Assembly (NCBI GenBank): GCA_015493585.1
Contig: WGCW01000134.1
Coordinates: forward strand, 1-25,738
Direction of reading: 5' to 3'
Source: Acidobacteriota bacterium
Lineage (GTDB): Bacteria > Acidobacteriota > Thermoanaerobaculia > Thermoanaerobaculales > Sulfomarinibacteraceae
DNA: 25,738 nucleotides
Of this stretch, positions 1 to 25,738 are shown one piece after another (the first letter of the stretch is position 1; every line of letters begins with the position of its first letter). Position numbers and translations under genes: made by a program. The notes under the pieces were generated by a model, which saw nothing but the letters and a program-made list of their open reading frames with translations, was not told the origin of the DNA and made no database searches.

Positions 1-105
1 AGAGTGACAGCTCTTCCTGTCATCCTGAGCCGCTCAATCCTCTTCCTGTCATCCTGAGCCGAAGGCGAAGGATCTGGGCGGGGGGCTCGGATGACAAGGT
101 GGGGA
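1..105. repeat. Partial copy (right arm only; window starts inside it) of the composite palindromic repeat family. It contains 2x GTCATCCTGAGCCGCTCAATCCTCTTCCT units, then GTCATCCTGAGCCGAAGGCGAAGGATCTGGGCGGGGGG and a trailing CTCGGATGACAAGGTGG unit.
   Basis: The same GTCATCCTGAG(Y)CGCTCAATCCTC block occurs at 25690-25738. The terminal GAAGGCGAAGGATCTGGGCGGGGGG matches the right ends at 2526-2547 and 19384-19407. Confidence 0.8.
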
Positions 106-413
106 TGGCTGCGTCTCTGCGCTTCATTCCTCTTCCGATCGGTTCCGCACAAATCACCCGGCGCCCCGATGGACCGGGGCGGTGGTTCGAGGTATGGTTT
201 GTCCATGAACGATCGTGGCGATGCGCAGGCTGGCCGCCCGGTGCTCTTCGTTGGTGACATCCATCTAGGACGGAGACCTGCGGTCCCCGGTTCGGTCCTC
301 CCGGAAACCGGCATCGTGGCGCACGAGCTTTCAGCGGCCGCCGGCGAAGCTGTGCCATCGGGTTCCATGGTGAAGAGGCGTGACGGAGCGGAGCCTCTCC
401 TGAGGAGGGCGAG

Positions 414-2006
414 ATGAAGCGGTGGATCATGATCGCGGCTGTGGCGGCTACGCTGCCGGTGGTGGCTAGCGCCGGCGAGGGAACGATGCCGCCGCCGGTG
501 TTCAAGGTCAAGGTGACGGCGCGCGCGACCGTCGAGTCGGGCGGGTTTCGGTACACCTACGATGTCGAGAATAGCCCTCAAAGCACATTGGAGCTCACTG
601 GGTTTGATGTCAATGTTGGAGCGGCGTACGCTGATGTTGCTGCTCAGGCTCCTCCAGGTTGGCGACTCTTCGACTTCTTCCCAAATGGCTGCCCGGTCTG
701 CCCTCCCAAGCACCAGTACTCCTTTCTTCCCGCTCGTGATCCCCACCATCCCGATGTCCCAGCGAAGTTTTTGCAACCTGGCGCTGAAGTCACAGGGGCC
801 TACCTGAATTCGAAACATCCGCCTGGCATTGTCCAACTCACCGCAGATCCTTGGATCTATCCGTGGTTTGACGCGTATTACGCCAAGTTTGGCTATTACC
901 CGGACGATCCAGAGCAGGATGAGATCAAGAAGAACGCAACGGCTCACGTGCCGGTCTTGGGTCCGATCGATGTAGCGGGCGGGACGTTTGCGCACTGGGA
1001 CCGGTACCTCGCGGACGTTACGAAGGCGGTGAAGCTCTCATGGATCCCGGATGCGCAGCTCGCTGGCCAGATTCAGGATCTGCTCTCGCAAGCGCGGCAC
1101 GCGGCGGGGCGGGGAGATTCTGCCACGGTGACATCGTTGCTCGACCAGGCGATCGCGGTGGTCAAGGGCGCGGGCGCTGACCAGATCACGGAAGAAGGCA
1201 GAGAGCTCGTGCGTCTCAACGCCCAGTACTTGAAGAACGCGCAGCCAACTCCGTACGAACCGGTGCTCGATCTTGTGCCGGCGACGTCGGCCCATTATGT
1301 GGGCGAGGAGGCGAGCGTAACGGCGCACTACTACAACCGGGCGAATGGAAAGCCGCTGCCCGGCGACGATGGCTCGGCCAAGATGCATTTTGAAATCACC
1401 AGTGGCCCAAATGCAGGGAAGAGCGCCGACGTTGATACCAGTCCGGCAACGGGCACGGCGACATGGTCCTACCGGGGGCTCAAGCTGGGGACCGACCATA
1501 TCTCGGTCGAGATCAATCCAGGGTATGCCCCGCAGAAGCATGCGCCCGGCGGAGCTCCCCCCGAAGCCAAACCGGTGACGGTCCGTTGGATCGGCGGTCC
1601 CGACCTGCGGATCCGGGAGCTGATTCCGCCGCTGACGATCGCCAGTCCCGGGGATCAAGTCAAGATCTTGAAAGCATCGACGGTCAACGCGGGCAATGTG
1701 CCGGCTGGTCCAAGCATCACGCGGTACTACGTTACGCCGGACCCCTCGCTTGACCCGAAGACGTTCGTCGAGCTCGGCGAGCGCCAGGTACCGGCGCTGA
1801 ATCCCGCGCAATCGAGCGATGTCTCCTCGCTCAGCTTCACGCTGCCGGACCTGAAGACGCCGGGCCGGGCGAAGCTCTACCTGGTTGCCTGCGCCGATGC
1901 AACGAACGAGGTCGTCGAAACCGACGAGACAAACAACTGCTCGACGAGCAACATCATTGGATCCATCTCCGTTGGTACCCTCGTGAAAAGGTGGCACAGC
2001 AAGTAA
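414..2006 (+). CDS. Secreted protein, 530 aa, with an N-terminal signal peptide and a C-terminal CARDB-like domain.
   Basis: The N-terminus MKRWIMIAAVAATLPVVASAGEG is a signal peptide. The C-terminal LYLVACADATNEVVETDETNNCSTSNI fits the E-x-N-E-x-NN signature of CARDB domains. RBS GGAGGG lies 4 nt before the ATG at 414. The middle of the protein has no family I recognise. Confidence 0.8.
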   Translation: MKRWIMIAAVAATLPVVASAGEGTMPPPVFKVKVTARATVESGGFRYTYDVENSPQSTLELTGFDVNVGAAYADVAAQAPPGWRLFDFFPNGCPVCPPKHQYSFLPARDPHHPDVPAKFLQPGAEVTGAYLNSKHPPGIVQLTADPWIYPWFDAYYAKFGYYPDDPEQDEIKKNATAHVPVLGPIDVAGGTFAHWDRYLADVTKAVKLSWIPDAQLAGQIQDLLSQARHAAGRGDSATVTSLLDQAIAVVKGAGADQITEEGRELVRLNAQYLKNAQPTPYEPVLDLVPATSAHYVGEEASVTAHYYNRANGKPLPGDDGSAKMHFEITSGPNAGKSADVDTSPATGTATWSYRGLKLGTDHISVEINPGYAPQKHAPGGAPPEAKPVTVRWIGGPDLRIRELIPPLTIASPGDQVKILKASTVNAGNVPAGPSITRYYVTPDPSLDPKTFVELGERQVPALNPAQSSDVSSLSFTLPDLKTPGRAKLYLVACADATNEVVETDETNNCSTSNIIGSISVGTLVKRWHSK

Positions 2007-2176
2007 CCGCGCAGCTGGAGCACGTGAGGCTTGCCGCCTGCTGTATACGCTAGGCCTTTAGTGGGCCTTGGAAAGGTGCCAGGCCCAGTGATGGACGTGT
2101 ACCGGACTTGGCACGTTGATCGACGGCGTTTCGGAGCACTCCCGGTCTGCGGACGGGATGAGCTCGTCCGAGCCTC

Positions 2177-2547
2177 TCTCTGCGAACCTCGCGTTCTCTG
2201 CGGTTGAATTCTCCCTGCGGCCGTTCCCCCGCCCAGATCCTTCGCCTTCGGCTCAGGATGACACGGAAGGTGGAAGGGCTCAGGATGACACGGAAGGTGG
2301 TAGTTGCACCTCCGGCACGCGGCTCAGGATGACACGGAAGGTGGAAGGGCTCAGGATGACACGGAAGGTGGGAGGGCTCAGGATGACACGGAAGGGGGTA
2401 GTTGCACCTCTGGCACGCGACTCAGGATGACAAGATAGGGACGGCTTTGCCTCCTCAGAATGACATTTCCTCCGTCATCCTGAGCCGCCTTACCCCCCAC
2501 ATGTCATCCTGAGCGATGTGCCGCAGGCGAAGGATCTGGGCGGGGGG
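2177..2547. repeat. Complete composite palindromic repeat element. A leader (CTCTGCGAACCTCGCGTTCTCTGCGG...) is followed by the left inverted repeat CCCAGATCCTTCGCCTTCG. Then comes a tandem array of five units GCTCAGGATGAC+ACGGAAGGTGGAAGG (27 nt; two units carry a 17-nt insert GTAGTTGCACCTCCGGCACGCG). A turn-around hairpin CCTCAGAATGACA-TTTCCTCC-GTCATCCTGAGC follows, then the right inverted repeat GTCATCCTGAGCGATGTGCCGCAGGCGAAGGATCTGGGCGGGGGG.
   Basis: Read directly: tandem units start at 2251, 2278, 2322, 2349 and 2376. The 5' CCCAGATCCTTCGCC (2232-2246) and 3' GGCGAAGGATCTGGG (2526-2540) form the terminal inverted repeat. Confidence 0.9.
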
Positions 2548-2697
2548 CCCGGATGCACCGGTCATGCCTTGCGCCTGTCTCAGCCGAAACGTGCTCGCGG
2601 ACCTCGCCAAAGCCCCAGCGTTAGGAACGGCAAAGCAGCGGCGCACAGCGCACCAACCTCGCATTCGAGAGTCACTCATGAATCATGAGGCCTACAC

Positions 2698-2706
2698 GTG
2701 TAAGAT
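2698..2706 (+). promoter_or_regulatory. Candidate -10 element GTGTAAGAT (TAAGAT at 2701-2706) for pilT. The predicted TSS is near 2713, giving a 22-nt leader that carries GGAGG.
   Basis: TAAGAT fits TAnnnT. The same 10-mer TGTGTAAGAT recurs upstream of the radical-SAM gene at 22423-22432. No convincing -35 (TGAATC at 2678-2683 matches 3/6). Confidence 0.3.
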
Positions 2707-2734
2707 ACGTTTTGGTACGATCGAGAGCTGGAGG

Positions 2735-4192
2735 ATGGAGTTGGATCTCAAAGAGCTCCTGATGTTCATGACGAAGAAAGGTGCATCAGACCTGCACCTC
2801 AAACCCACACGTCCACCCCTGTTGAGGATCCAGGGACGTTTGATCCCATTAAAGGCAGCACCTCTCAAGCCCGACGAGGTTGAGAGCATGATCATGGAGA
2901 TCCTAACGCCGGCGCAGCGCGAGAGGCTGCACACACACCAAGCGGTCGATGTCGGCTATGGGCTTGCCGGCGTCGCACGATTCCGGTGCAATTTCTATCA
3001 ACAACGTGGCACGATTGCTGGGGTATTCAGGCGGATTCCTTTTGAGATCAAGCCGGTCGAAGAGCTCAATCTGCCCGACGTTCTCAACACCTTTACCCAT
3101 CTCCCGGCGGGGCTCGTCCTCGTCACAGGTCCTACTGGATCTGGAAAATCGACGACGCTGGCTGCTCTGATCCAACGGATCACCCAGACGCGGCCCTGTC
3201 ACGTCGTGACAATCGAGGATCCAATCGAATTCTTGTTCACCGACGACAAGGCGACAGTGTCCCAGCGGGAGGTTGGTACCGATACGCCGAGCTTTCAGGA
3301 AGCCCTCCGGAACACGATGCGCCAGGATCCGGACGTCATTATGGTTGGCGAGATGCGGGACCTCGACACGGTTTCGACGGTCATCACCGCAGCGGAAACG
3401 GGCCACCTTGTCTTTTCCACCCTGCACACGAACTCGGCGTCGCAGACCATCGACCGGATCATCGATTCATTCTCCTCCGACCAGCAGGCCCAGGTTCGAA
3501 GTCAGCTCGCACTGGTCCTTAAGGCCGTCGTTTCCATGACACTGCTCAAGAGGGCCGATGGGAAGGGTCTGGTTCCTGCTGTTGAGATCCTCATGAACTC
3601 GCCAAAGATCTCAAAGCATATCGAGGATGGTGAAATCAAGGAGATCCACGAGGAAATCGAGAATTCCGTCGCCTATTTCAAGATGCAGACAATGAACCAG
3701 TCGCTGATCGCGCTTCTGGTCAACGGGATCATTTCCTACGAGACCGCCATTGACGCGTCAACTGATCCCTCAGACCTGTCGTTGAAGCTGAGAAAGCTCT
3801 TCCCTTCGATCGAAGAGCAGTTTAGGGAGGGAGCCATGGCCCCGTCGCCAGCAGATTTTTCAGAAATCCTCGAGCTGATCGAGGTCAAACGCCTCTACGA
3901 GGAATCCGAGGAACGGCACAAGGTCGAAATGCAGGCGAAGGATGAGCAGATCGCCGCATTGGAGCAGGAAATCGCAGACCTGCGCCGGATGATGGAAGAA
4001 GATTCAAGTAGCGTCGATGCAATCAAGAAACAGCTCGAGCAGCTGCAAGCCGAAAACCAGCTCCTTCGTGATGAATCAGCGAAGAAGGTCGCCACACTCA
4101 ACGAGAGGATTCGGGACCTCAACCAGCGTCTCCGTGAAGCCGGAGGCGGGCCCAAGACCGCCAAGAACCCTTCCGGCTTCTTCAAGCACTGA
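2735..4192 (+). CDS. pilT: Type IV pilus retraction (twitching motility) ATPase, PilT family, 485 aa, with an atypical C-terminal coiled-coil extension of about 125 aa.
   Basis: MELDLKELLMFMTKKGASDLHL is a PilT-like N-terminus. Walker A is LVLVTGPTGSGKSTT, Walker B is VIMVGEMRDLDT, and GHLVFSTLHTNSA is the His box. The C-terminal tail EEQFREG...LEQEIADLRRMMEE...QLEQLQAENQLLRDE shows heptad periodicity. I chose the ATG at 2735 (RBS GGAGG at 2730-2734) over the ORF-track start at 2516, whose first 73 codons run back into the repeat element. Confidence 0.9.
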   Translation: MELDLKELLMFMTKKGASDLHLKPTRPPLLRIQGRLIPLKAAPLKPDEVESMIMEILTPAQRERLHTHQAVDVGYGLAGVARFRCNFYQQRGTIAGVFRRIPFEIKPVEELNLPDVLNTFTHLPAGLVLVTGPTGSGKSTTLAALIQRITQTRPCHVVTIEDPIEFLFTDDKATVSQREVGTDTPSFQEALRNTMRQDPDVIMVGEMRDLDTVSTVITAAETGHLVFSTLHTNSASQTIDRIIDSFSSDQQAQVRSQLALVLKAVVSMTLLKRADGKGLVPAVEILMNSPKISKHIEDGEIKEIHEEIENSVAYFKMQTMNQSLIALLVNGIISYETAIDASTDPSDLSLKLRKLFPSIEEQFREGAMAPSPADFSEILELIEVKRLYEESEERHKVEMQAKDEQIAALEQEIADLRRMMEEDSSSVDAIKKQLEQLQAENQLLRDESAKKVATLNERIRDLNQRLREAGGGPKTAKNPSGFFKH

Positions 4193-4204
4193 CCCGGATA
4201 GCCG

Positions 4205-5485: not shown

Positions 5486-5867
5486 CACTTGGCTCCGCGT
5501 CCGGACGGCCAATCAGTTGTTCGACTTGAGCGAGAAGATCCCGGTTCGAAAACGGCTTGCAGATGTAGGCGTTCGCGCCGAGCTGAAGGCTCCCAATCTG
5601 GTCAAGCTGGCCGGTCCGTGCCGAAACAATGATCACCGGAACATCAGCCCCCTGGGGCTGTGCCCGGAGCAGCTTCAACAGCTCCATGCCATCGAGGTCC
5701 GGCATCATCAGATCGAGCAGGACCAGATCCGGAGGAGCTTGGAGCATCCGCGCCAGGGCCCGGCGGCCGCTCGTCTCTGTTTCCACCTCGTAGCCCTCCA
5801 ACTCAAGAACCGTCTCGATGAGCTCAACGACGTCCGGTTCATCATCGACAACAAAGACCCGTTTCAT
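5478..5867 (-). CDS. Stand-alone CheY-like response-regulator receiver protein, 129 aa.
   Basis: MKRVFVVDDEPDVVELIETVLELEGYEVE...PDLVLLDLMMPDLDGMELL...VPVIIVSA...ICKPF is a canonical REC fold with an acidic pocket and a phospho-acceptor Asp in LLDLMMP. The ATG at 5867 is preceded by GGGGGA. In another frame, the longer track ORF (to 6161) overlaps the kinase C-terminus by 263 nt (5899-6161). Confidence 0.85.
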   Translation of the reverse strand: MKRVFVVDDEPDVVELIETVLELEGYEVETETSGRRALARMLQAPPDLVLLDLMMPDLDGMELLKLLRAQPQGADVPVIIVSARTGQLDQIGSLQLGANAYICKPFSNRDLLAQVEQLIGRPDAEPSDG

Positions 5868-5898
5868 GATCAATCCCCCGTTCATCTGCTCCGCTGGG

Positions 5899-10219: not shown

Positions 10220-10394
10220 AGCCTAACACGGGATGACGCGTCACTCTACGGCCACGTGCCATTGCAGATGATCCGAATGTTTTTCGAGGGTGTTGCGCTG
10301 TCGGGAACGGCGAAGAGCATCGGATAGGAAGGCACCAGATTCGGCTTCACCTCAAGAAATGCCCGGAATTACACGTTTGCCCCGGAAAACATGC

Positions 10395-10557: not shown

Positions 10558-10686
10558 GGACTAGCGTGTCTCTTTCCCCCCTTCCAGAAGAGTTTCTCGC
10601 AGAGAACGCCGCGACCGCGGAGGGGAGGTTCATGCCTGGGCAGTCGTGACGGTCTTGGGTGGCGTCGCGTGCAATCCGTAGCATTG

Positions 10687-10828
10687 CCCCCCCGGCCCAG
10701 ATTCTTCGTCGGCTTCACCTCCTCAGAATGACAGCCGGAGGGAAGGCGACGCCTCCTCAGAATGACACTTCCCCCTGTCATCCTGAGCGGCGTGCCGAAG
10801 GCTCGCCGCGAAGGATCTGGGAGGGGGC
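10687..10828. repeat. Short member (3a) of the repeat family. A variant left inverted repeat CCCAGATTCTTCGTCGGCTTCACCTCCTCAGAATGACA is followed by one unit and the hairpin CTCAGAATGACA-CTTCCCCCT-GTCATCCTGAGC, then the right end GGCGTGCCGAAGGCTCGCCGCGAAGGATCTGGGAGGGGG.
   Basis: Read directly. It is the same architecture as 2177-2547, with AGA in place of AGG in the core. Confidence 0.8.
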
Positions 10829-10844
10829 CAAAGTTGGGGACGGT

Positions 10845-11170
10845 CTTGCACTCATCTCGGCCTTCCTCTGCGAACCTCCGCGTTCTCTGCGGTTAGGTTC
10901 TCCCTGCGGCCGTCCCCCACCCAGATTCTTCGTCGGCTTCGCCTCCTCAGAATGACATTGGGGGGAAGGCTGTGCCTCCTCAGAATGACATTGGGGGGGA
11001 AGGCTGTGCCTCCTCAGAATGACATTGGGGGGAAGGCTGTGCCTCCTCAGAATGACGCCTCCCCCTGTCATCCTGGGCGGCGTGCCGAAGGCTCGCCGCG
11101 AAGGATCTCGCCTCCGCAAAATGACAGGGGGGCTTCGCCTCCGGCTCACGATGACAAGGGAGGGAAGGCC
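10845..11170. repeat. Member 3b of the repeat family. The leader CTCTGCGAACCTCCGCGTTCTCTGCGGTTAGGTTCTCCCTGCGGCCGTCCCCCA and the left inverted repeat CCCAGATTCTTCG precede a tandem array of three 33/34-nt units CCTCCTCAGAATGACATTGGGG(G)GAAGGCTGTG. Then come the hairpin arm CCTCCTCAGAATGACGCCTCCCCCT-GTCATCCTGGGC, the right inverted repeat and two further degenerate units (AAATGACAGGGGGG, CTCACGATGACAAGGGAGG).
   Basis: The leader matches 2177-2232 at about 90%. Units begin at 10950, 10983 and 11017. Confidence 0.85.
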
Positions 11171-11272
11171 CCGCCTGTGCGCTTCATGCCTCTTCCCACC
11201 GGTCTCGCACAGCTGAAGAAGCGACAGGCAGCGCAACAACCTCTCTTCACCTCAGGTTTCACCCGCTTCGGA

Positions 11273-11278
11273 TAAGAT
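11273..11278 (+). promoter_or_regulatory. Candidate -10 hexamer TAAGAT lying 6 nt upstream of the recD2 GTG start, possibly giving a leaderless or very short-leader transcript.
   Basis: The sequence is GATAAGATGTTGAG-GTG. No convincing -35 was found. The same hexamer is used upstream of pilT and the radical-SAM gene. Confidence 0.25.
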
Positions 11279-14602: not shown

Positions 14603-15120
14603 CGGCCTCCCTTCGAGGTCACGTTCTCAAAGACCGTCGCACGTTCGTCAAAACGGCGATCCGCCTCACGAACATCGGCGAGAACGGCCTGAAGCGCAGC
14701 CGCATTCGCCGTGCCCGGCAGGCTCTCGATCCGTGTGACAAGTTTCTCAACCTCCTCGACGAGGCCCAAGTCGTGCTCGTACAGGCGATCGAGCTCATCC
14801 TCGTAGATCTTGACGGCATCGAAGAAACCCGTATACCCGTAGTCCGCATGGCGAACGCGGTTCGCAAACCGGTCGAGCCCCTTGTCGATGCTCGATGCCA
14901 CATCGAGGTTCGCCAGATCTCCCGACCTCGACCATTCCCGGATGCTCTGCTGTACGAGCTCCCGGGCGCGGTCGATCTGCGCCGCAATCCAATCCCGTTC
15001 CATCTTGTCGACCTCACGGCGGGTTTCCCGTTCCAGATACCCCTTCAGCCCGGGAATCTTGGCGGCGAGCCGCTCCAGCGCGTTGCGGCGTTCCCTCGCA
15101 TGCTGTATGCCTTGATCCAT
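14599..15120 (-). CDS. Hypothetical all-helical (coiled-coil) protein, 173 aa, translationally coupled to the SPFH protein.
   Basis: I chose the ATG at 15120 because AAGGAGGG lies 8 nt upstream. The ORF-track start at 15159 would place that SD inside the coding sequence. No known motif; the sequence is rich in E/R/L heptads. Its stop overlaps the SPFH start (14599-14602). Confidence 0.6.
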   Translation of the reverse strand: MDQGIQHARERRNALERLAAKIPGLKGYLERETRREVDKMERDWIAAQIDRARELVQQSIREWSRSGDLANLDVASSIDKGLDRFANRVRHADYGYTGFFDAVKIYEDELDRLYEHDLGLVEEVEKLVTRIESLPGTANAAALQAVLADVREADRRFDERATVFENVTSKGGR

Positions 15121-15215
15121 CAGCCTTCCCTCCTTCTGCCACGGATGACACTTTGACATCCTATCGTGCCATACGTGCGCGGCACAACTTTGATTCCAAA
15201 GGAAGATTCAGGCAC

Positions 15216-15237
15216 GAAGAATGCAAACCGCCCGGTG
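15216..15237. promoter_or_regulatory. Conserved motif GAAGAATGCAAACCGCCCGGTG (on the reverse strand: CACCGG..TTGCATTCTTC), 100 nt upstream of the SPFH operon start.
   Basis: A near-identical block, GAAGAATGCAAGCCGGTG, lies at 18897-18914, 107 nt upstream of the bPH/queA operon start. A degenerate copy is at 10395-10414. Confidence 0.4.
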
Positions 15238-15372
15238 TGATGTTTCCACTGGTTCTGTCTCCCCGCACGTTCGGTGCCGGCGGAAGGCCGGCAGGCCGGT
15301 GGCAGTCCACCTTGTCAGGGCAGCACGCTGCCCCGTCCTTGCTTGCGCTTACCTTAAGAGTTCCTTCCAGTC

Positions 15373-15416
15373 GCCTTCCAAACCCGGCCGCCCGGGATGC
15401 GGGGATCCCGGGCGGC
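15373..15416 (+). terminator. Very stable GC hairpin (14-bp stem 15373-15386 / 15393-15406, loop GCGGGG) followed by CCCGCC-TTTT. Possible intrinsic terminator, RNA 3' end or insulator in the 350-nt divergent intergenic region.
   Basis: GCCGCCCGGGAT-GCGGGG-ATCCCGGGCGGC is a perfect inverted repeat read from the sequence. The T4 tract begins 6 nt after the stem. No annotated forward-strand gene lies upstream of it. Confidence 0.3.
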
Positions 15417-15443
15417 CGCCCGCCTTTTCAGCCGCCGACGCAG

Positions 15444-15449
15444 TAGAAT
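15444..15449 (+). promoter_or_regulatory. Candidate -10 TAGAAT for the small membrane peptide/htpX transcript. The TSS would fall near 15456 at the start of GGGAGGAGG.
   Basis: TAGAAT fits TAnAAT and lies 19 nt upstream of the ATG at 15469. The -35 is weak (TTTTCA at 15425-15430 with a 13-nt spacer). Confidence 0.3.
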
Positions 15450-15468
15450 GCCGGTGGGAGGAGGTCTG

Positions 15469-15615
15469 ATGAGCCACAAGGTACGTCACAAGAGGAGACG
15501 GCCGAAGAAGCGTTACCTGGGCAAATACTCGCTGACTGAGATGATGCTCGCCGGCCTTGGCGCGCTGATCATCCTGATCATCCTCGCCATGATCATCTCC
15601 GCCATCGCCGGGTGA
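15469..15615 (+). CDS. Small membrane protein, 48 aa: a basic N-terminus followed by one transmembrane helix.
   Basis: The sequence is MSHKVRHKRRRPKKRYLGKYSLTEMMLAGLGALIILIILAMIISAIAG. RBS GGGAGGAGG lies 4 nt upstream. It sits 75 nt upstream of htpX on the same strand. Confidence 0.45.
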   Translation: MSHKVRHKRRRPKKRYLGKYSLTEMMLAGLGALIILIILAMIISAIAG

Positions 15616-15690
15616 CCCCGGGAAGATTGCCGGGCGCCATTCCGTTTTTTGTACCAACGGGGGCGTGCCCCTGGATGGAGGTCAAAACCG

Positions 15691-16548
15691 ATGAACATGT
15701 TCAAGACGGCGCTCCTGCTCGGAATCATGACCGCCGTTCTGCTGTGGGCGGGAGATGCGATGGCGGGGCAGACGGGGCTGATCCTGGCGTTGATCTTTGC
15801 CGCGGCTCTCAATTTCTCGAGCTGGTTCTTCTCCGACAAGATTGCGCTCCGCGCTCACAAGGCGCAGCCGGTCACGGAGGCGGAAGCGCCCGAGCTCTAC
15901 GCTGTGCTCCACGAGCTGACCGGACGCGCAGGACTTCCGATGCCACGGGTCTACGTCCTCCCCGAGGATCAGCCGAACGCATTTGCCACCGGACGCAACC
16001 CGCAGCACGCAGCGGTTGCTGTCACCCGTGGTCTGCTCCAGACGATGAACCGCGAGGAGCTCAAGGGGGTGCTCGGCCACGAGCTTGCCCACGTCAAGCA
16101 CCGGGACATCCTGATCATGTCGGTCGCCGCCACCTTAGCCGGCGCGATCATCGTGCTCGCCCGCATGGCGGGGTGGGCGCTCCTCTTCGGAGGGTTCGGA
16201 GGACGGGGCAGCCGGGACCGCGGCGGTGCCCTCGGTGGGCTCCTGTTCTACCTGCTCGCGCCGCTGGCCGCCATGTTGATTCAGATGGCGATCTCACGTT
16301 CGCGCGAGTTCGCCGCCGACGAGGGTGGCGTCCAGTTCGCCGGTGGCCCCCAGGGGCTCGCATCCGCTCTCCGCAAGCTCGGCGCCTTGACCCCCAGGAT
16401 CCCGATGCGGACCGCCAAGCCGGCCACCGCACACATGATGATCGCCAACCCGTTCGGAGGCCAGTCCATGATGCGGCTCTTCTCGACCCATCCACCGATC
16501 GAAGAGCGCATCCGCAGGCTCGAATCGATGGGCGCACACCTCGGATAG
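15691..16548 (+). CDS. htpX: Zinc metalloprotease HtpX (peptidase M48), 285 aa.
   Basis: N-terminal TM helices, the HEXXH motif in GVLGHELAHVKHRD, and a downstream EFAAD glutamate. I chose the ATG at 15691 (RBS GGAGG at 15676-15680) rather than the track start at 15649. Confidence 0.9.
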   Translation: MNMFKTALLLGIMTAVLLWAGDAMAGQTGLILALIFAAALNFSSWFFSDKIALRAHKAQPVTEAEAPELYAVLHELTGRAGLPMPRVYVLPEDQPNAFATGRNPQHAAVAVTRGLLQTMNREELKGVLGHELAHVKHRDILIMSVAATLAGAIIVLARMAGWALLFGGFGGRGSRDRGGALGGLLFYLLAPLAAMLIQMAISRSREFAADEGGVQFAGGPQGLASALRKLGALTPRIPMRTAKPATAHMMIANPFGGQSMMRLFSTHPPIEERIRRLESMGAHLG

Positions 16549-16649
16549 CCTCGCGAACGGCGGCTTTGGACGACGGCGGCTCAGCGTGAAGAGCAGTGCG
16601 CTGGCAGTCGTCTCACCGGTTGGAGGAGATCACGAGTGAGTCGTGCGGG

Positions 16650-17723
16650 CTAGGAGATGAACATCGCATCTCCATAGGAGAAGAACCGGTAGCGCCGAAG
16701 GACGGCCTGGCGGTAGGCTGCCAGCGCATGCTCACGACCGGCAAAGGCGCTAACGAGCATCAGGAGCGTCGACTTCGGCCAGTGGAAGTTCGTCAGCAAC
16801 CCGCCAAGCCCTTGAAAGTGAAAGCCCGGCGTGATGAACAGGCGGCTCCATCCTGATCCCGGGCGCAGCATCCCGCCTCCTGTGATCAGACCAGTCTCGA
16901 GGGTCCGGACCGCCGTCGTACCCACACACACGATCCGCCGCTGGCTGGCGAGGGCGCGGTTGATCGTGCGGCTGGCCCCTTCCGTGATTTCGTACCACTC
17001 CGCGTGCATCGTGTGATCTTCGATCCGCTCGACGGTGACGGGCCGGAAGGTGCCGATCCCGACGTGGAGGGTCACCTGGGCAATCTCGATCCCGCGGGCC
17101 GCGATCTCCTCGAGCATCTCGTGCGTCAGGTGCAGGCCAGCGGTTGGGGCGGCTACGGCTCCAGGCTTATCGGCGAAGACCGTCTGGTACGCTCGCCTGT
17201 CATCCTCCGTGGCGCCGTCCGGCCTGTGGATGTACGGGGGAAGCGGCGGTTGACCCAATGCATCGAGCCGCTCGAGGTCGAGCGCCGGCACGCAGCGGAT
17301 CCGCCAGCGCCCCTCACCAAGCCGTTCCTCGGGCACGAGGGCACCACCGTCTGGAAGGTGGAGCTCTTCCCCGGGCCGGGCCCTCGCTGACGGGCGCAGC
17401 AGCGCTTCCCACCGCTCCTCGTCCAGCGCTTTGAGGAGGAGCACCTCGAACGTCCGGCCCGTCGCGCGCTGGGCGCTCAGACGTGCGGGGAGCACCTTCG
17501 TGTCGTTGAGCACGAGCACATTGCCCGGCACGAGCAGGGTGGGAAAGTCGGCCACGCGCCGGTGCCCAACCGCTCCGGTACGCCGGTCCAGCGTCATCAT
17601 CCTCGCAGTTCCCCGCGGCCGGGGGGCCTGCGCAATCAGCTCGGGAGGCAGCTCGTAGTCAAACTCGCTCGTCCGCACCGGCGCATCATACTCCGGCAAA
17701 GGCCCGGAGAAAGGCGGTGACAC
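16650..17723 (-). CDS. queA: S-adenosylmethionine:tRNA ribosyltransferase-isomerase QueA, 342-357 aa.
   Basis: FDYELPPELIAQAP, VLVLNDTKVLPARL and LHLTHEML...HVGIGTFRPV are hallmark QueA blocks. The ORF begins with GTG at 17723. A second in-frame GTG at 17678 (V16, with GGAG 14 nt upstream) would give the more typical N-terminus VRTSEFDYELP. Confidence 0.88.
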   Translation of the reverse strand: MSPPFSGPLPEYDAPVRTSEFDYELPPELIAQAPRPRGTARMMTLDRRTGAVGHRRVADFPTLLVPGNVLVLNDTKVLPARLSAQRATGRTFEVLLLKALDEERWEALLRPSARARPGEELHLPDGGALVPEERLGEGRWRIRCVPALDLERLDALGQPPLPPYIHRPDGATEDDRRAYQTVFADKPGAVAAPTAGLHLTHEMLEEIAARGIEIAQVTLHVGIGTFRPVTVERIEDHTMHAEWYEITEGASRTINRALASQRRIVCVGTTAVRTLETGLITGGGMLRPGSGWSRLFITPGFHFQGLGGLLTNFHWPKSTLLMLVSAFAGREHALAAYRQAVLRRYRFFSYGDAMFIS

Positions 17724-17737
17724 ACCACAAGCGGCCG

Positions 17738-18319: not shown

Positions 18320-18320
18320 C

Positions 18321-18794: not shown

Positions 18795-18896
18795 CACACC
18801 TCCTTTTGGCATGTAGCGATGGCGCCTGAGGATGCCACTGCACACGCCCCACCGCTCAAACCCACCTCACCATCCCAAACATGGCGCCGAGGCCGG

Positions 18897-18914
18897 AAGA
18901 ATGCAAGCCGGTGC
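18897..18914. promoter_or_regulatory. Second copy of the GAAGAATGCAAGCCGGTG motif (reverse strand CACCGGCTTGCATTCTTC), 107 nt upstream of the bPH-queA operon.
   Basis: See 15216-15237. Confidence 0.4.
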
Positions 18915-18958
18915 AGGTCTCTAAACACCCGCGCTAAGCTCCGCAACGATCGCAGAGT

Positions 18959-18980
18959 AGGGGACAGTGTCGAATCATTC
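18959..18980. promoter_or_regulatory. Second copy of GGGGACAGTGTCGAAT-C-ATTCG, a dyad with an 11-bp palindrome CGAATCATTCG.
   Basis: See 10537-10557. Confidence 0.45.
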
Positions 18981-19174
18981 GCACATCTCATCCGCCAGAA
19001 TCGCTCACCTTCGGTTTGATTCGGGCATCTTCGTGCTGGGCATGCCGGGATTATAGACAAACGAGCGTTCCCCCCGGCGTTCTTACCGTCCTTTATGCGA
19101 AACCTCTTTGTGGGGAGCAGAATCATCCTCTCGTGTCCTGCCGATTCGAAGGGGCGAGCCTAGTCCACGGGATG

Positions 19175-19407
19175 CCCCCCACCCAGATCCTTCGCCTTCG
19201 GCTCAGGATGACAAGAAAAGTGGAATGGCTCAGGATGACAAGAAAAGTAGAATGGCTCAGGATGACAAGAAAAGTAGAATGGCTCAGGATGACGCGGACG
19301 AGGGATCATTCCGAGGAGGAGAAGTCATCGTTTCCCCTGTCATCCTTGAGGACAAACTATTCTTTCCCCTGTCATCCTGAGCCGAAGGCGAAGGATCCGG
19401 GTGGAGG
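19175..19407. repeat. Repeat-family member 4. The left inverted repeat CCCCCACCCAGATCCTTCGCCTTCG precedes three 27-nt units GCTCAGGATGACAAGAAAAGT(G/A)GAATG and a degenerate unit. Then come the arm TCATTCCGAGGAGGAGAAGTCATCG, 2x CCCCTGTCATCCT(T)GAG, and the right inverted repeat CCGAAGGCGAAGGATCCGGGTGGAGG.
   Basis: Units begin at 19202, 19229 and 19256. The ends are inverted-complementary (19182-19200 vs 19384-19400). Confidence 0.9.
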
Positions 19408-19494
19408 ACCACCCGAAGCTGCCCGCTTCTGCAGTTCTCTGCGAGAGGCCATGGCACTCACGGCTGACCGGTCATTGAACTGGTCTGCACCTCC

Positions 19495-19500
19495 CCCGTG
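19495..19500 (+). promoter_or_regulatory. Candidate -10 TACAAT for the Ser/Thr kinase operon. It is embedded in a near-palindromic AT-rich block TACAATAATTGT (19495-19506).
   Basis: TACAAT lies 67 nt upstream of the ATG at 19567. TTGAAC sits at 19465-19470, but with a 24-nt spacer, too far for a -35. The AT-rich near-dyad is unusual in this GC-rich DNA. Confidence 0.25.
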
Positions 19501-19566
19501 GGGGTACAATAATTGTGGGAACTTTGAGGTTAGATCAAGGAGCGCCTTGCGCGGGAGGTTCGCGAC

Positions 19567-21504: not shown

Positions 21505-21553
21505 GCTCGCTGCGGAACACCGGAACGCTTGGGGAGAAGCCGCTCGCAAAGCC

Positions 21554-21562
21554 TGCTATCCT
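21554..21562 (+). promoter_or_regulatory. Candidate extended -10 (TGcTATCCT) ending 8 nt before the ATG at 21571, which would make the nuclease mRNA leaderless.
   Basis: The TGn + TAnnnT geometry is read directly. No SD precedes 21571. Confidence 0.25.
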
Positions 21563-21570
21563 TCCGGGCG

Positions 21571-22407
21571 ATGGGTACGCCTGGATCTCACCCGACCCCG
21601 GTCAACGTCTTTTCCTTCTCCCGGCTCAAGGCGTTTATGCAATGTCCGCTGCGCTACAAACTCCGCTACCTCGACGGGCGTAGGGAGGCGTTCCGGTCGA
21701 TTGAGTCGTACCTCGGCAACGTGGTTCACGAAGTCCTCGAATGGATGTACGCCCGCCGCATGGAGGACCGGACGCCCGCGCTCGACGCGATCCTCGATGA
21801 GTTCGCGCACCGGTGGCAGGCTTCGTGGTCGGAGGAGGTCGCCGTCATCAGGGTCGGCAACGATCCAAAAGACAGCTACCGCGTCGGCCGTGAAATGCTG
21901 ACGACGTTCTACCACCAGGTTTACATCCACGATCTCAGCACGACCGTCGCGCTGGAGCAACGGCTCCATGCGCGTCTCGGCGAAGGCCTCGCATTCACCG
22001 GCTTCGCCGACCGGATCGGCCGGACCGCCCGGGGCCAGCTCTTCGTCGTTGACTACAAAACCTCTTCGCGTGAGGGCAACGGCGACGATTTCTCCGAAGG
22101 GCTGCAAGCGCCGCTCTACGCCGCCAGCGTCCTCGACCGGCACGGAGATGCCTCGTGCCTGGCGGGCTACCACTACCTTCGCTTTGGAACGACAAACTGG
22201 AGCACCGTCACCCGCGAGTCCGGCCGCACACTCCGGGATCGCTTCACCGCCATGGCCCGTCAGGCGCTCCTCGCGACCGATTTCCCGCCACGGCCTGGCG
22301 TGCTCTGCGCCTGGTGCGGCTTCAACCGGATCTGCCCCGCTGCCCAGGTGCCACCACAGCTCTCCGGCGGCCTCAATCCGCCACCCGAAGCCCTGCGGCC
22401 GCTGTAG
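21571..22407 (+). CDS. Cas4-like / RecB-family PD-(D/E)XK nuclease with a 4-Cys cluster, 278 aa from the ATG at 21571 or 292 aa from the TTG at 21529.
   Basis: The N-terminal FSFSRLKAFMQCPLRYKLRYL is the Cys-bearing AddB/Cas4-type motif. VVDYKTS is the D-x-K catalytic block. The C-terminal CAWCGFNRIC supplies three more Cys, giving a C...CxxC...C [4Fe-4S] arrangement as in Cas4/AddB. It is stand-alone, with no helicase fused and no cas neighbours. Confidence 0.8.
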   Translation: MGTPGSHPTPVNVFSFSRLKAFMQCPLRYKLRYLDGRREAFRSIESYLGNVVHEVLEWMYARRMEDRTPALDAILDEFAHRWQASWSEEVAVIRVGNDPKDSYRVGREMLTTFYHQVYIHDLSTTVALEQRLHARLGEGLAFTGFADRIGRTARGQLFVVDYKTSSREGNGDDFSEGLQAPLYAASVLDRHGDASCLAGYHYLRFGTTNWSTVTRESGRTLRDRFTAMARQALLATDFPPRPGVLCAWCGFNRICPAAQVPPQLSGGLNPPPEALRPL

Positions 22408-22422
22408 CCCAGCCCCCCCGTT

Positions 22423-22432
22423 CTGTGTAAGA
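22423..22432 (+). promoter_or_regulatory. Candidate -10 TGTGTAAGAT (TAAGAT at 22427-22432) for the radical-SAM/PTPS pair. A leader of about 46 nt ends in GGGGGATGAAGGGA.
   Basis: The 10-mer is identical to the one upstream of pilT (2697-2706). Confidence 0.3.
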
Positions 22433-22485
22433 TGGCACCCCCGCGCGGTCCCGACGGCCGGACCGGGGGATGAAGGGACACCCAG

Positions 22486-25014
22486 ATGCCAGAGTACACG
22501 CCCCTGCACGGCTCCGTCCGCGCGGCGCTCGACGCGATTCTTCCCCGCGTGATGAAGCCCGCCCGCTATCTCGGGCTGGAGCGGAATCTCGTGCGGAAGG
22601 CGTGGGACAGTGTTGCGATCCACGTCGCGCTGGCGTTCCCCGATACGTACGAGATCGGCATGTCCCATCAGGGTTCCCGGATCCTCTATCACCTGGTCAA
22701 CCGCCGTCCGGACGCCCTGGCCGAGCGGACCTACGCGCCGTGGGTCGACATGGCCGCAATGATGCGGGAGCACCGGGTCCCGCTGTACACGCTGGAATCG
22801 TACCGGCCGGTCCGTGATTTCGACGTCGTCGGGATCACGCTCCAGTCCGAGCTCAACTACATCAACGTGCCGTACCTCCTCGACCTCGGCGGTTTGTCCC
22901 GGCGGGCGGCCGATCGCCGGGAGGATGAGCCGATCGTCGTGGGCGGTGGACCGTGCATGGCCAATCCAGAACCGGTCGCCGCCTTCTTCGATGCGATGCT
23001 GATCGGAGACGCCGAGGCGGCTCTCGATCAGATCCTCGACACCATCCGCTCGGCGCGCGAGGCCGGTAGCTCGCGGCTCGGGCTGTTGCGGCGGCTGGCC
23101 GGCATCCCCGGGGTCTACGTGCCCCGGCTGTACCGCTTCGCTGGGAACGGCGCGGAAGGCGTTGCAACCGCCGCCGGGCCGGACGTGCCATACCCCGTCC
23201 AGCGGGTCTGGACGCCACACCTCGACGCCGCCGATCAGCCGGAAGTGCCGATCGTTCCGTTCGCCGGCGTCATCCAGGATCGCCTCGGCATGGAGATCAT
23301 GCGCGGCTGCACACGCGGCTGCCGCTTCTGCCAGGCGGGCTTCTGGTACCGGCCGGTCCGGGAGCACGACCCGGCCGTCATCGCCGAACGCCTGCAGCGC
23401 CAGGCCAGCGAGACCGGGTTCGAGGAAGTCGGCCTCCTGAGCCTCTCCTCGGCCGACTACTCGCAGATCTCACCGCTGGTAGCCACCCTCGCGGCGCGCT
23501 TTGAGGACCGCCGCGTCTCGGTCAGCCTGCCGAGCCTCAGAGCCGACGCATTTTCCGTCAACCTCGCCGATGCTGTCTCCCGCGTTCGCAAGTCGGGGTT
23601 CACCTTTGCCCCGGAGACCGGCTCGGACCGGCTGCGCCGCGTCATCAACAAGACCTTTACCAACGACGAGGTGATCGAGGCTGCCGGCGCCGCGTTTGCC
23701 AAGGGATGGAACCTCCTCAAGCTGTACGCGATGATCGGCCTGCCCACCGAAACCGGCGAGGACCTCCGCGAGCTGGCTGGCCTTGTCCGGAAGCTCGTCG
23801 CGCTCGGGCAAAGGATTCGTGGCCGGCGGGTCGAGGTTAAGCTCTCGGTTGGCTCCTTCATCCCGAAGCCTTGGACGCCGTTCCAGTGGGAGCCGTTTGG
23901 GCCGGTCGACGCTCTCGAACGCAAGATCGCACTGCTCCGCGACGAGCTCCGGCGCGTACGAGGTGCACGGATGACCTGGAACGATCCACATCAGGCCGCT
24001 CTCGAAGCGCTGCTGTCCCGTGGCAGCCGGGCGTTGACCCCAGCCATCGAGCGCGCGTACGAGCTCGGAGCCGTCTTTGACGGGTGGTCCGATCAGCTCA
24101 ACCTCGATGCCTGGGACCGGGCGTGCGCCGAAACCGGCATCGACCGTGAGGCCGAGCTCGGCCCGCGCAGCCTGACCGCCTCGCTTCCGTGGGACGTCAT
24201 CGCGCCCGGCGTCCGCAAGGGCTACCTCAAGGCCGAACGGCGCCGCGCGTTGAACGAAACCGTCACAGGTGACTGCAAGTGGGGCGCCTGCACCCATTGC
24301 GGCATCCCGGGCGATGGCAACGACATCGACCTCGCTCCGGCGACCCTCGCACCGCCCACTGCCCGCCGCCCGGCAATCCGCACCGGGGAGCGAACAGCGC
24401 CGGCCGCCTCCAGACGCGTCCGGATCACCTTTTCCAAGACCGGCGACGCGCGCTTCCTCTCCCATCGCCAAGTCATGGACGCTCTGGAACGGGTCCTGCG
24501 GGCCGCACAGATTCCGGTCCGGTTCACCGGCGGTTTCAACCCCCACATCCGGCTGTCGATGGGGCCGGCGCTGCCGCTCGGCTATGAGGGGCTGGCCGAA
24601 GCGTTCGACATCGAGTGCACAGCTCCACTGCGTCCCGCGCACCTCGAAAGGATCAACGCCAAGCTGCCAGACGGCCTCCGGCTGACCGGAATGACGAGCC
24701 TCCTTCCGGGCGCTCCATCGCTCGGCAAGCTGGCGGCGGCCGCCCGCTACCGGATCAAGCTGCCGGATGGCGCTCCGCCGCTGCGGCGCGAGGCGATCCC
24801 GGACGAGCTCAGACCCGGCGTACAGCTTTGGAAAGAGCTCGAAGGAGGAGCAATCCGAGTGCAGCTCAACCTCCGGCAGCAGGAGGGACCCGCGCCCACC
24901 GTGAGGACCCTGCTGACGGCGCTGGGCGTCCCGGAAACCGGTCAGGCGGCCGCTCGCATCACGCGGGAGGCCGTGATCCTCAAACCAAGAGCCAGATCGC
25001 GGGAGGCCTCATGA
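22486..25014 (+). CDS. Large radical-SAM protein, 842 aa. It appears to be a single-polypeptide fusion of a B12-binding-domain/radical-SAM enzyme (TIGR03960-like) with a radical-SAM-linked DUF2344 (TIGR03936-like) C-terminal domain.
   Basis: CTRGCRFCQAGFW is the CxxxCxxC radical-SAM cluster motif at about residue 275. The N-terminus (VAIHVALAFPDTYEIGMSHQGSRILY) resembles a cobalamin-binding-like Rossmann module. The C-terminal block RVRITFSKTGDARFLSHRQVMDALERVLRAAQIPVRFTGGFNPHIRLSMGPALPLG matches the DUF2344 profile, which I recall usually being a separate adjacent gene. Confidence 0.88.
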   Translation: MPEYTPLHGSVRAALDAILPRVMKPARYLGLERNLVRKAWDSVAIHVALAFPDTYEIGMSHQGSRILYHLVNRRPDALAERTYAPWVDMAAMMREHRVPLYTLESYRPVRDFDVVGITLQSELNYINVPYLLDLGGLSRRAADRREDEPIVVGGGPCMANPEPVAAFFDAMLIGDAEAALDQILDTIRSAREAGSSRLGLLRRLAGIPGVYVPRLYRFAGNGAEGVATAAGPDVPYPVQRVWTPHLDAADQPEVPIVPFAGVIQDRLGMEIMRGCTRGCRFCQAGFWYRPVREHDPAVIAERLQRQASETGFEEVGLLSLSSADYSQISPLVATLAARFEDRRVSVSLPSLRADAFSVNLADAVSRVRKSGFTFAPETGSDRLRRVINKTFTNDEVIEAAGAAFAKGWNLLKLYAMIGLPTETGEDLRELAGLVRKLVALGQRIRGRRVEVKLSVGSFIPKPWTPFQWEPFGPVDALERKIALLRDELRRVRGARMTWNDPHQAALEALLSRGSRALTPAIERAYELGAVFDGWSDQLNLDAWDRACAETGIDREAELGPRSLTASLPWDVIAPGVRKGYLKAERRRALNETVTGDCKWGACTHCGIPGDGNDIDLAPATLAPPTARRPAIRTGERTAPAASRRVRITFSKTGDARFLSHRQVMDALERVLRAAQIPVRFTGGFNPHIRLSMGPALPLGYEGLAEAFDIECTAPLRPAHLERINAKLPDGLRLTGMTSLLPGAPSLGKLAAAARYRIKLPDGAPPLRREAIPDELRPGVQLWKELEGGAIRVQLNLRQQEGPAPTVRTLLTALGVPETGQAAARITREAVILKPRARSREAS

Positions 25015-25433
25015 GCCGCTGGGTCGTGCACAGCCGAGCTGCATTTCACGCGCGCCACGCGCTCGCCCGGTACCGGGGTGAGCCTGAGCATCCGCACGAG
25101 CACCGGTGGAAGGTCGCCATCGAGGCCGGTTTCGAGAGCCTGACCGACGAAGGGTACGCGGCCGACTTCAGTTCGGTCCATGCCCTGCTTCGCTCGCTCG
25201 TCGCCCCGCTCGACGGAAGCGATCTTAGTCAGCACCCCGAGATCGGCGTCCCCTCCCCGACGGCCGAACGCCTCGCCGAATTTCTCGCATCCCGCCTCGC
25301 CGCCCCGCTCGGCGCCCTCGGCGGGCGCCTCCTGACGATCAGCGTCTGGGAAGGTCCTGACAACCGTGTCGACTACCATCCCGATCCAGGTCCCTCCGCC
25401 GGGCTCGAGAACTCGGAGCAGCGCTCAGGCTGA
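25011..25433 (+). CDS. 6-pyruvoyl-tetrahydropterin synthase / QueD-like (T-fold) protein, 140 aa, that lacks the catalytic Cys.
   Basis: AFHARHAL...EPEHPHEHRWKVAIEAG...ADFSSV...LTISVWEGPDNRVDYHP shows the His/HxH zinc triad and the layout of the PTPS/QueD family. The position of the QueD CxxxHGH cysteine is taken by EPEHPHEH. The start forms a 4-nt ATGA overlap with the radical-SAM stop, and GGGAGG lies 4 nt upstream. Confidence 0.7.
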   Translation: MSRWVVHSRAAFHARHALARYRGEPEHPHEHRWKVAIEAGFESLTDEGYAADFSSVHALLRSLVAPLDGSDLSQHPEIGVPSPTAERLAEFLASRLAAPLGALGGRLLTISVWEGPDNRVDYHPDPGPSAGLENSEQRSG

Positions 25434-25461
25434 CCTGGCCGTGAAGGCCTTGAGATTCCGT

Positions 25462-25738
25462 CCCCCCCGCCCAGATCCTTCGCCTCCGGCTCAGGATGAC
25501 CGGGGGAAGTGGCATGGCTCAGGATGACCTGGGGAAGTGGCATGCCTCAGGATGACCGGGACAGTGGAAGGGCTGAAGATAGCCCTGAAAGGGTTGTGCG
25601 ACTCACGACAACGACTGAGGGCGACATTCCGAGGAGACGAAGCGCGCCCTTTCCCTGTCATTCCGAGGAGGCGAAGCCATTCCTCCCTTGTCATCCTGAG
25701 TCGCTCAATCCTCCTACTGTCATCCTGAGTCGCGTGCC
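25462..25738. repeat. Repeat-family member 5; the window ends inside it. The left inverted repeat CCCCCCCGCCCAGATCCTTCGCCTCCG precedes three 28-nt units GCTCAGGATGACCGGGGGAAGTGGCATG (variants), a unique core, GACATTCCGAGGAG / CCCTGTCATTCCGAGGAGG arms, and 2x GTCATCCTGAGTCGC.
   Basis: Units begin at 25481, 25509 and 25537. The tail matches element 1 at 1-60. Confidence 0.85.

Follow-up and report, generated by a model that had tools for sequence, protein, structure and literature searches.

The window analysed here, a contig of 25,738 nucleotides (63% G+C) from an Acidobacteriota bacterium (WGCW01000134.1 of assembly GCA_015493585.1), carries large composite palindromic elements in five of its intergenic regions. 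Each of these loci is probably a cluster of repetitive extragenic palindromic (REP)-like hairpins that form in single-stranded DNA (ssDNA) and belong to the CGTC/TGTC-tagged class, or Ssn-related motifs (SRM), where they would be recognised by a homologue of the Ssn nucleases encoded elsewhere in the genome. Sequence comparison places the hairpins in the Ssn-related repeat family broadly, yet in a class beyond its current formal definition: they carry a tandem GA·AG mismatch and are missed by the published SRM pattern, and the class so delimited appears to be new here. In the single-stranded state the 5-nt arms of each hairpin would pair, the two GA dinucleotides would face each other and the inner stem-loop would be free to vary; cut as ssDNA in a sequence-specific manner, the clusters would then shape the recombination of incoming or replicating DNA.

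Read on its own strand, the complete unit is TGTC - ATCCT - GA - inner stem-loop - GA - AGGAT - C - TGG, as in TGTCATCCTGAGCCGAAGGCGAAGGATCTGGG, and the building block can be generalised to (T/C)GTC-ATCCT-GA-[variable stem-loop]-GA-AGGAT-C-TGG. The five loci hold ten complete hairpins, five per strand, with an eleventh truncated by the end of the window, and about 21 half-hairpins, all on the core CTCAGGATGAC; these orphan copies consist of the tag and the 5' arm alone (TGTCATCCTGAGCC, with a pyrimidine-rich tail upstream). All copies are intergenic and lie in opposed pairs. In the ten complete hairpins the arms are ATCCT/AGGAT or ATTCT/AGAAT without exception, and GTC before the stem and C after it are found in all ten and are likewise conserved across phyla; the tag is TGTC in nine and GGTC in one, and the orphan half-sites carry TGTC, CGTC or GGTC. 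The folded unit comprises 5 bp, the GA·AG mismatch, an inner stem of 3 bp (up to 6+3 bp) and a loop of 3 nt.

The pattern is far from chance: with at most one mismatch the core occurs 33 times in the window against 0.67 expected from shuffled sequences, all except three matches falling within the five loci, and the 31-nt terminal repeat occurs five times against none expected. A preliminary description of this DNA, made from its letters, had reported five such loci of one shared architecture, and both points hold, as do the outer inverted, hairpin-bearing ends and the internal tandem units. The core, called invariant there, is nearly so, with the variants CCCAGGATGAC, CTCACGATGAC and GTCATTCCGA. 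Tandem Repeats Finder delimits arrays at 2321-2395 (and 2250-2432) in locus 2 (period 27 (98), 97% matches), 10941-11056 in locus 3 (period 33, 97%), 19200-19293 in locus 4 (period 27, 98%) and 25488-25560 in locus 5 (period 28, 93%), which agrees with unit tails that vary among loci and are homogeneous within each. Three more assemblies, independent of this one and from the same or a nearly identical organism, show these structures as well, namely the NCBI metagenome-assembled genome GCA_027039845.1 (L001; 99.3% identity), an ENA scaffold (L322; 99.89%) and a Logan contig (L323; 99.98%), and the elements are thus no assembly artefact.

Each composite is made of two opposed sets in which a complete hairpin comes after a variable number of 5' halves, the tails being directed outward and the tags towards the middle of the element; the central hairpin arms noted earlier arise because the two opposed half-arrays face inward with their tags. 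In loci 2-5 the orphans lie, without exception, 5' of a complete unit on the same strand. Among 5' halves in the window 21 of 30 (70%) are orphan, and orphan 3' halves are few (6 of 15). The outer repeats are inverted copies of each other (100% identity for 2226-2263 against 47-84, 89% for 19168-19213 against 19370-19415) and are able to pair mutually: when a full element is folded as DNA, the locus 4 region 19168-19420 forms one long hairpin (-62.2 kcal/mol, z = -7.6), and the stretch 10770-10822 of locus 3 gives -16.8 kcal/mol (z = -4.0). Two further points of the preliminary description are supported, the mosaic character, similar to that of bacterial interspersed mosaic elements (BIMEs), and the statement that this is no CRISPR array.

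The link to a nuclease comes from other organisms. Among the 120 hairpin-ascertained genome loci listed, three carry a gene for a 93-96-aa GIY-YIG protein (PF01541, E ~1e-16 to 1e-18), which was missed at an open reading frame (ORF) cut-off of 90-100 aa and found at 50 aa; a hairpin on one side and its inverted copy on the other enclose the gene in two of them (L100, L101), and in the third (L083) it has a hairpin doublet upstream and an inverted hairpin downstream. The converse sampling gave the same association. Eighty metagenome loci were selected solely by similarity to the hairpin-flanked GIY-YIG proteins and scored for a generic hairpin (GTC, a 5-nt arm, an inner part, the complementary arm and C): a hairpin lies within 300 bp of the GIY-YIG gene in 60 of the 80 and on both sides in 36, its position around the gene forms a sharp peak, and its orientation is skewed, with 47 plus-strand hairpins against 17 upstream and 47 minus-strand hairpins against 23 downstream. 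Hairpins flank a small single-domain GIY-YIG gene, putatively of the cd10448 type, also on a Planktothrix plasmid described below. A tblastn search of PLSDB matched two gonococcal chromosomes, where a 94-aa ORF sits amid nine exact NTS copies in 2.6 kb; these 2.17-Mb Neisseria gonorrhoeae chromosomes (L324, NZ_CP119140.1, and NZ_CP119142.1) are catalogued in PLSDB as plasmids and were the source of the SsnA/NTS reference locus. The gonococcal 94-aa SsnA aligns over its full length with the hairpin-flanked GIY-YIG proteins (hhalign 99.7%, E = 3e-26), and the 93-96-aa proteins are thus SsnA homologues.

The nuclease SsnA, a single-domain GIY-YIG protein of 94 aa, binds and cuts, as ssDNA only, the site NTS (CGTCATTCCCGCGMAVGCGGGAATCYRG), a longer form of dRS3 (Chenal et al., Nat Commun 2025; PMC11893778). 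In that study cleavage depends on the three nucleotides 5' of the palindrome (GTC) and occurs a few nucleotides upstream of this tag, and binding depends most on the C directly 3' of the palindrome; ssDNA-specific binding and cleavage were demonstrated for three Neisseria enzymes and one Wolbachia enzyme, and ssnA genes across bacteria are flanked by such motifs (PMC11893778). Compared with NTS and the SRM sites as presented there, the window class has the same (C/T)GTC tag, a stem starting with AT, a C directly 3' of the stem and the CYRG tail (CTGG here); one of its natural arm variants, ATTCC/GGAAT, is identical to the NTS arms; and both occur as clustered intergenic copies, presumably in the hundreds for the window class as for NTS, with inverted hairpins flanking homologous 93-96-aa GIY-YIG genes. 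The two differ in that NTS has C-G/G-C pairs where the window class has the tandem G·A/A·G mismatch, in the far more variable inner stem-loop of the window class, and in the tandem arrays of 5' halves, which do not figure in the examined passages of PMC11893778.

The unit also shares defining features with the CGTC-tagged REPs, which include dRS3 of Neisseria, RPE-4 and RPE-6 of Rickettsia and the Micavibrio repeats (Di Nocera et al., BMC Genomics 2013; PMC3733652). In that study these repeats are characterised by an unpaired CGTC tag (often TGTC, with CCTC allowed too), A and T at stem positions 1-2, a short tail, stems of 8-9 bp and loops of 4-5 nt, and are reported in five phyla. Shared with the window class are the tag, the AT-start stem, the short unpaired tail, the arrangement mostly as inverted dimers, the lack of an associated transposase and, in some species, large mosaic clusters; because the unit has these tag, stem and tail features of CGTC-tagged REPs and of NTS/SRM sites, the building block belongs to a described repeat family, contrary to the preliminary description, which had found no known class; as far as the building block goes, this is the outcome that the description itself had named as refuting it. 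The stem differs in form: the window class has a 5-bp stem, the GA·AG mismatch, an inner stem of 2-10 bp and loops of at least 3 nt in place of 8-9 continuous base pairs (its stem would count as one of ten positions with two non-Watson-Crick pairs), and its range of at least 12 phyla, including candidate-phyla-radiation bacteria, and phages exceeds the five phyla of that account (PMC3733652).

This range was obtained with an exact-pattern scan (TGTCATCCTGAG N3-30 GAAGGATC) over one genome per species, which returned at least 120 loci, and over IMG/VR viral contigs, which again returned at least 120. Among the matches listed, the hairpin occurs in at least 12 phyla and in phage contigs: the hosts include Chloroflexota, Acidobacteriota, Bacillota and Bacteroidota (with the isolates Hymenobacter profundi and Mucilaginibacter), Planctomycetota, Gemmatimonadota, Verrucomicrobiota, Cyanobacteriota and Ignavibacteriota, as well as Rickettsiales, Coxiellaceae, Micavibrio and candidate-phyla-radiation bacteria, and the IMG/VR contigs encode terminases, capsid and tail proteins. 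On the phage contigs (L122-L241) the hairpin is common and often present in several copies on one strand, with six in 4.2 kb on L200. The consensus doublet had no BLAST match among GenBank phages or PLSDB plasmids, and a literature search by sequence words returned primer matches only.

Covariation was assessed on 1021 instances gathered with a tolerant pattern, 711 of which were not fixed by the search pattern. Stems starting with AT predominate among the 1021, and the outer arms change in concert: ATCCT/AGGAT (n=384), ATTCT/AGAAT (n=111), ATCCC/GGGAT (n=28), ATTCC/GGAAT (n=24) and ATGCT/AGCAT (n=23) stand against at most eight instances of each mixed combination. Inner stems are between 2 and more than 10 bp long and change in a compensatory way, also among copies of one genome. 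The hairpin is selected as a structure.

Several observations weigh against a cluster of Ssn-recognised sites in this organism. The sequence of it that was available, about 33 kb in all (the window, L001, L322 and L323), contains no Ssn-like ORF, and for many of the hairpin-bearing phage contigs no ssn gene was found in the fetched stretches. The published SRM pattern, HGTCWYN(0-2)YYVSBRHN(0-5)WNVSBRGN(0-2)RNCYNB, matches neither the window nor any of the 80 GIY-YIG loci but does match the NTS control; its flanks HGTCWY and RNCYNB fit the window unit and its centre fails, because the tandem G·A/A·G mismatch stands where NTS has two Watson-Crick pairs. The GA·AG class lies outside the motif as formally defined, and a nuclease of that class is a prediction. 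Nothing known of SsnA explains the origin of the half-site arrays. The DNA-fold z-scores of the short hairpins are unremarkable (-0.3 to -1.7). Sheared G·A pairs and GNA loops may be credited with too little stability by DNA energy models. Finally, the outer stems show no asymmetry between G·T and A·C mismatches (74 vs 68) and the inner stems a weak trend, so that the sequence does not mark the folding strand.

This last point bears also on the alternative of structured RNA elements acting after transcription as stabilisers of mRNA 3' ends, terminators or a protein sponge, which we consider improbable as a replacement for the DNA-level role, with which it is not mutually exclusive. The hairpins are intergenic and prefer co-directional (77) and convergent (26) over divergent (14) gene pairs; GA·AG tandem mismatches and GNA/GNRA-like loops are stable in RNA too, and CAGGAUG resembles CsrA-binding repeats. 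CAGGATG is identical to the CsrB repeat consensus, and GATCCT...GGCTCAGGATGA in the units, that at 2250-2263 among them, is similar to the start of bacterial 16S rRNA (GATCCTGGCTCAGGATGAAC); either likeness may be coincidence. Transcription is frequent among published REPs (PMC3733652). Against an RNA stands the lack of sense/antisense bias relative to the flanking genes (44 vs 33 in genomes, 29 vs 38 in phages), which together with the missing strand asymmetry fits a DNA-level element better than a strand-specific RNA. The presence of the hairpin in phyla that are not known to have CsrA also speaks against this reading. None of the 4227 models of Rfam 15 matches the window elements or 18 diverse related loci at the gathering threshold, and permissive thresholds yield matches at chance level, mostly to miRNA models. 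Ssn nucleases cut ssDNA exclusively, according to PMC11893778.

A classical REP/BIME system, in which a REP-associated tyrosine (Y1/HUH) transposase would move and process the hairpins in the manner of E. coli and Pseudomonas, would account for the same architecture of tagged imperfect hairpins, inverted doublets and mosaic clusters (PMC6006769, PMC3733652), and Y1 proteins are widespread. Compared with the BIME and REPIN-RAYT elements of these species, the window class shares the mosaic of alternating tagged hairpins, the conserved linkers, a putative ssDNA substrate and, in other organisms, a small domesticated nuclease gene with its own repeats on either side. The tag here is (T/C)GTC and not GT[AG]G, however, the gene between the hairpins encodes a GIY-YIG and not an HUH/Y1 enzyme, and BIMEs repeat whole hairpins and have no half-arrays. 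In about 2 Mb of hairpin-bearing loci, phmmer with IS608 TnpA and YafM queries and a regular expression for the HUH...Y motif found no Y1/HUH ORF, and CGTC-tagged repeats are described in the literature as never flanking tyrosine transposase genes. Such a system is accordingly a very unlikely explanation.

The reading as Ssn-type sites is complemented by the half-site arrays, since cleavage by SsnA is known to fall on the 5' side and it is, by this analogy, solely the side of the hairpin where SsnA cuts that is amplified. Tandem arrays of the 5' half-hairpin alone, always on the cleavage side, are new here. They recur beyond the window, on a cyanobacterial plasmid, in Chloroflexota and in other contigs from metagenomes or associated with phages. 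Outside the window, one to three additional 5' halves precede about 9% of the complete hairpins, at periods of 18-40 nt, and about 20% of 5' halves are orphan there as against 70% in the window, whereas orphan 3' halves in the other loci are at chance level. Plasmid p1 of Planktothrix agardhii (L325, NZ_LR882964.1 17653-20316) carries an ssn-like gene, for the protein WP_083616022.1, with hairpin arrays laid out as two to three repeats of TGTCATTCTGAG plus tail, a complete hairpin, a spacer, an inverted hairpin and two inverted halves, the same design as in the window. The neighbours of that gene are a type IIL MmeI-like restriction-modification gene and DISARM drmA, a setting that looks like a defence island.

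Slippage or gene conversion between 14-nt direct repeats is the most likely and simplest account of how the arrays expand and become homogeneous; an involvement of the nuclease in their growth would be hypothetical. Repeated cutting by Ssn with repair or template switching might build the arrays, such that the nuclease would amplify its own sites, or each orphan 5' arm might pair with the single 3' arm and provide a ladder of alternative cleavage registers. A more far-reaching proposal, to which we give a rather small chance, is that the half-arm arrays are a functional or mechanistic signature of the nuclease and that, taken with the GA·AG class, Ssn-type ssDNA restriction would be far more widespread, in phages too, and structurally richer. 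The earlier statement that the element amplifies its internal units is a fair description of the pattern, with the qualification that solely the 5' half of the hairpin is multiplied and that the mechanism is a matter of interpretation.

The elements are also where strains differ, and this concentration is new here. Of the 18 differences that separate the window from L322 over 16.2 kb, 15 are located in the elements, 6% of that length, and 14 in locus 3b; they are substitutions and small indels within units, and an identical dinucleotide change is found in two adjacent units of locus 3, as homogenisation would predict. A comparison of orthologous sites in the related strain L001 gave a divided answer, with locus 2 identical and locus 1 arranged differently and with another type of inner stem. 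The gene between these two loci (414-2006), which encodes a protein with a CARDB domain, is hypervariable against L001: positions 550-1000 show 18-43 mismatches per 100 nt as compared with three differences in about 7.5 kb downstream, and an indel lies near 1250-1300. This recalls Neisseria, where genes flanked by dRS3/NTS are reported to be more diverse. Contigs of four assemblies break inside elements, the ends of the window, L001 and L323 among them, a type of contig break typical of dispersed repeats. In L322, positions 15900-16950, which extend past the right end of the window, complete locus 5 and continue with a tandem duplicate of about 545 bp (the element and about 250 nt of flank). 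The left hairpin of this duplicate shares its type of inner stem with locus 1 of L001, and a 313-aa "gene" that gene calling places over it has no Pfam match and is probably spurious.

Strain differences, terminal inverted repeats (TIRs) and a homogenised internal array would also suit a transposable element of the miniature inverted-repeat kind (MITE) derived from a DDE insertion sequence, with TIRs recognised in trans by a transposase and an internal minisatellite; a MITE-like element was the reading of the preliminary description. BrickBuilt (MITEPgRS) of Porphyromonas gingivalis provides the precedent, being intergenic with inverted ends around a minisatellite (PMC4596501). Its ends are IS5-type TIRs of 12 bp (GAGACCTTTGCA) with some target duplications, it is restricted to its species, its copy number varies by strain where the window shows changes within units, and its units are unrelated to its ends, whereas the window units are halves of the terminal hairpin (PMC4596501); with unrelated ends, BrickBuilt was discarded as a relative. 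The "TIR" of the window is itself a self-folding hairpin with compensatory changes, and, unlike the ends of an insertion sequence, this 25-nt hairpin is found conserved in phages and in at least 12 phyla. A non-exhaustive inspection of doublets by eye revealed no target-site duplication, and no insertion sequence with these ends was found among the 240 loci; all-against-all clustering of the ORFs of the 120 genome and 120 viral loci returned common housekeeping and phage structural families only and no shared transposase. The TIR subtype of the window's organism, sought in all fetched loci, was found only in L001, of the same species. With no transposase in 2 Mb of related loci and a GIY-YIG gene as the associated one, a MITE is highly improbable.

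Equally remote is the notion of double-stranded palindromic sites to which a DNA-binding dimer, such as a regulator or a nucleoid protein, would attach without need of a hairpin: symmetric half-site changes would likewise preserve a palindrome and some loci (locus 3) lie in divergent promoter regions, but five stem variants coexist, often in one element (ATCCT and ATTCT in locus 3), the arms are separated by a self-complementary spacer of 7 to more than 45 nt, which misfits a fixed dimer footprint, and orphan half-sites are multiplied on one side only. Hammerhead, K-turn, oriT-nic (YATCCTG), attC and CsrA-sponge identities were dropped by eye, their core motifs being incomplete or their taxonomic range unfit.

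Along the window, the elements reach further than the preliminary description had stated, through common flank modules. Locus 1 (1-105) is cut by the start of the window and contains, on the plus strand, an orphan 5' half-hairpin (18-28) and the complete hairpin TGTCATCCTGAGCCGAAGGCGAAGGATCTGGG (47-78), followed by the degenerate half-site CTCGGATGACA (87-97). Before the left hairpin of locus 2 lies a conserved flank module (CTCTGCGAACCTC..GCGTTCTCTGCGGTT..TTCTCCCTGCGGCCGT; 2163-2231, plus strand), of which a second copy with 79-90% identity is found at 10851-10918; the flanks of loci 2 and 3 have two sequence modules in common, and the flank stretch 118-150 resembles 11180-11200. The left terminal repeat of locus 2 is a complete minus-strand hairpin (2232-2263), 100% complementary to 47-84, and is followed on the same strand by an array of six orphan 5' half-hairpins, each TGTCATCCTGAGCC with its pyrimidine-rich tail (2264-2465; periods 27 and 44 nt), the last unit of which is the ATTCT variant (2455-2465). 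The plus-strand part (2473-2540) comprises the orphan half-hairpin CGTCATCCTGA (2473-2483) and the complete hairpin of the right terminal repeat (2502-2540).

Locus 3 consists of two tandem composites with repeated modules spaced 224 and 290 nt. The first, locus 3a (10696-10821), has two hairpins and an orphan half: a complete minus-strand hairpin of the ATTCT/AGAAT variant (10696-10733), the orphan on the same strand (10757-10767) and a complete plus-strand hairpin with the 6+3-bp inner stem (10776-10821). Its tandem copy, locus 3b (10920-11156), has a complete minus-strand hairpin (10920-10957), a 33-nt array of three orphan halves on that strand (10980-11057) and a complete plus-strand hairpin (11066-11107), with degenerate units following up to 11156. 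Locus 4 (19182-19401) is the sole complete simple copy, with a minus-strand hairpin (19182-19213) and three orphan halves of 27-nt period (19230-19294) opposed to degenerate plus-strand halves (19307-19349) and a plus-strand hairpin (19370-19401). Locus 5 (25470-25738), cut by the end of the window, has a minus-strand hairpin (25470-25501), two orphan halves of 28-nt period on that strand (25519-25557) and three plus-strand half-sites (25656, 25689 and 25718), the right hairpin starting at 25718 and being completed in L322 as TGTCATCCTGAGTCGCGTGCCGAAGGCATGCGGCGAAGGATCTGGG.

The genes between the loci are of the housekeeping type and encode, besides the CARDB-domain protein, a PilT-like ATPase, GGDEF/EAL and histidine kinase proteins, YicC, an ABC exporter and RecD2, and further an SPFH protein, QueA, a Ser/Thr kinase, a PD-(D/E)XK nuclease, a radical-SAM protein and PTPS. 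The copies do sit between genes, as had been noted, and occupy five of the six major gaps rather than every one: the gap of about 570 nt at ~15120-15690 (by gene calls) is the sole large intergenic gap without an element, and L322 has just a 48-aa ORF called there. ORFs of 90-153 aa traverse the arrays (2116-2430, 10659-10955, 10778-11239, 10952-11275 and 19108-19380) because the 27-nt period preserves the reading frame, and they are likely to be annotated as hypothetical proteins.

SRM sites have been catalogued with a narrow pattern, and the Ssn nucleases were characterised only in 2025. The building block of the window elements belongs to this described repeat superfamily with its cognate enzyme family; what is added are the GA·AG class and the one-sided half-site minisatellites. 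A mismatch-bearing class of hairpins adjoins homologous GIY-YIG genes, escapes the published pattern, spans many phyla and phages, and can form large, fast-evolving intergenic mosaics with half-site arrays on one side. For annotation, such clusters break metagenome assemblies and yield spurious ORFs, of which the 313-aa call in L322 is an example; for the biology of horizontal transfer, they provide new candidate pairs of enzyme and site.

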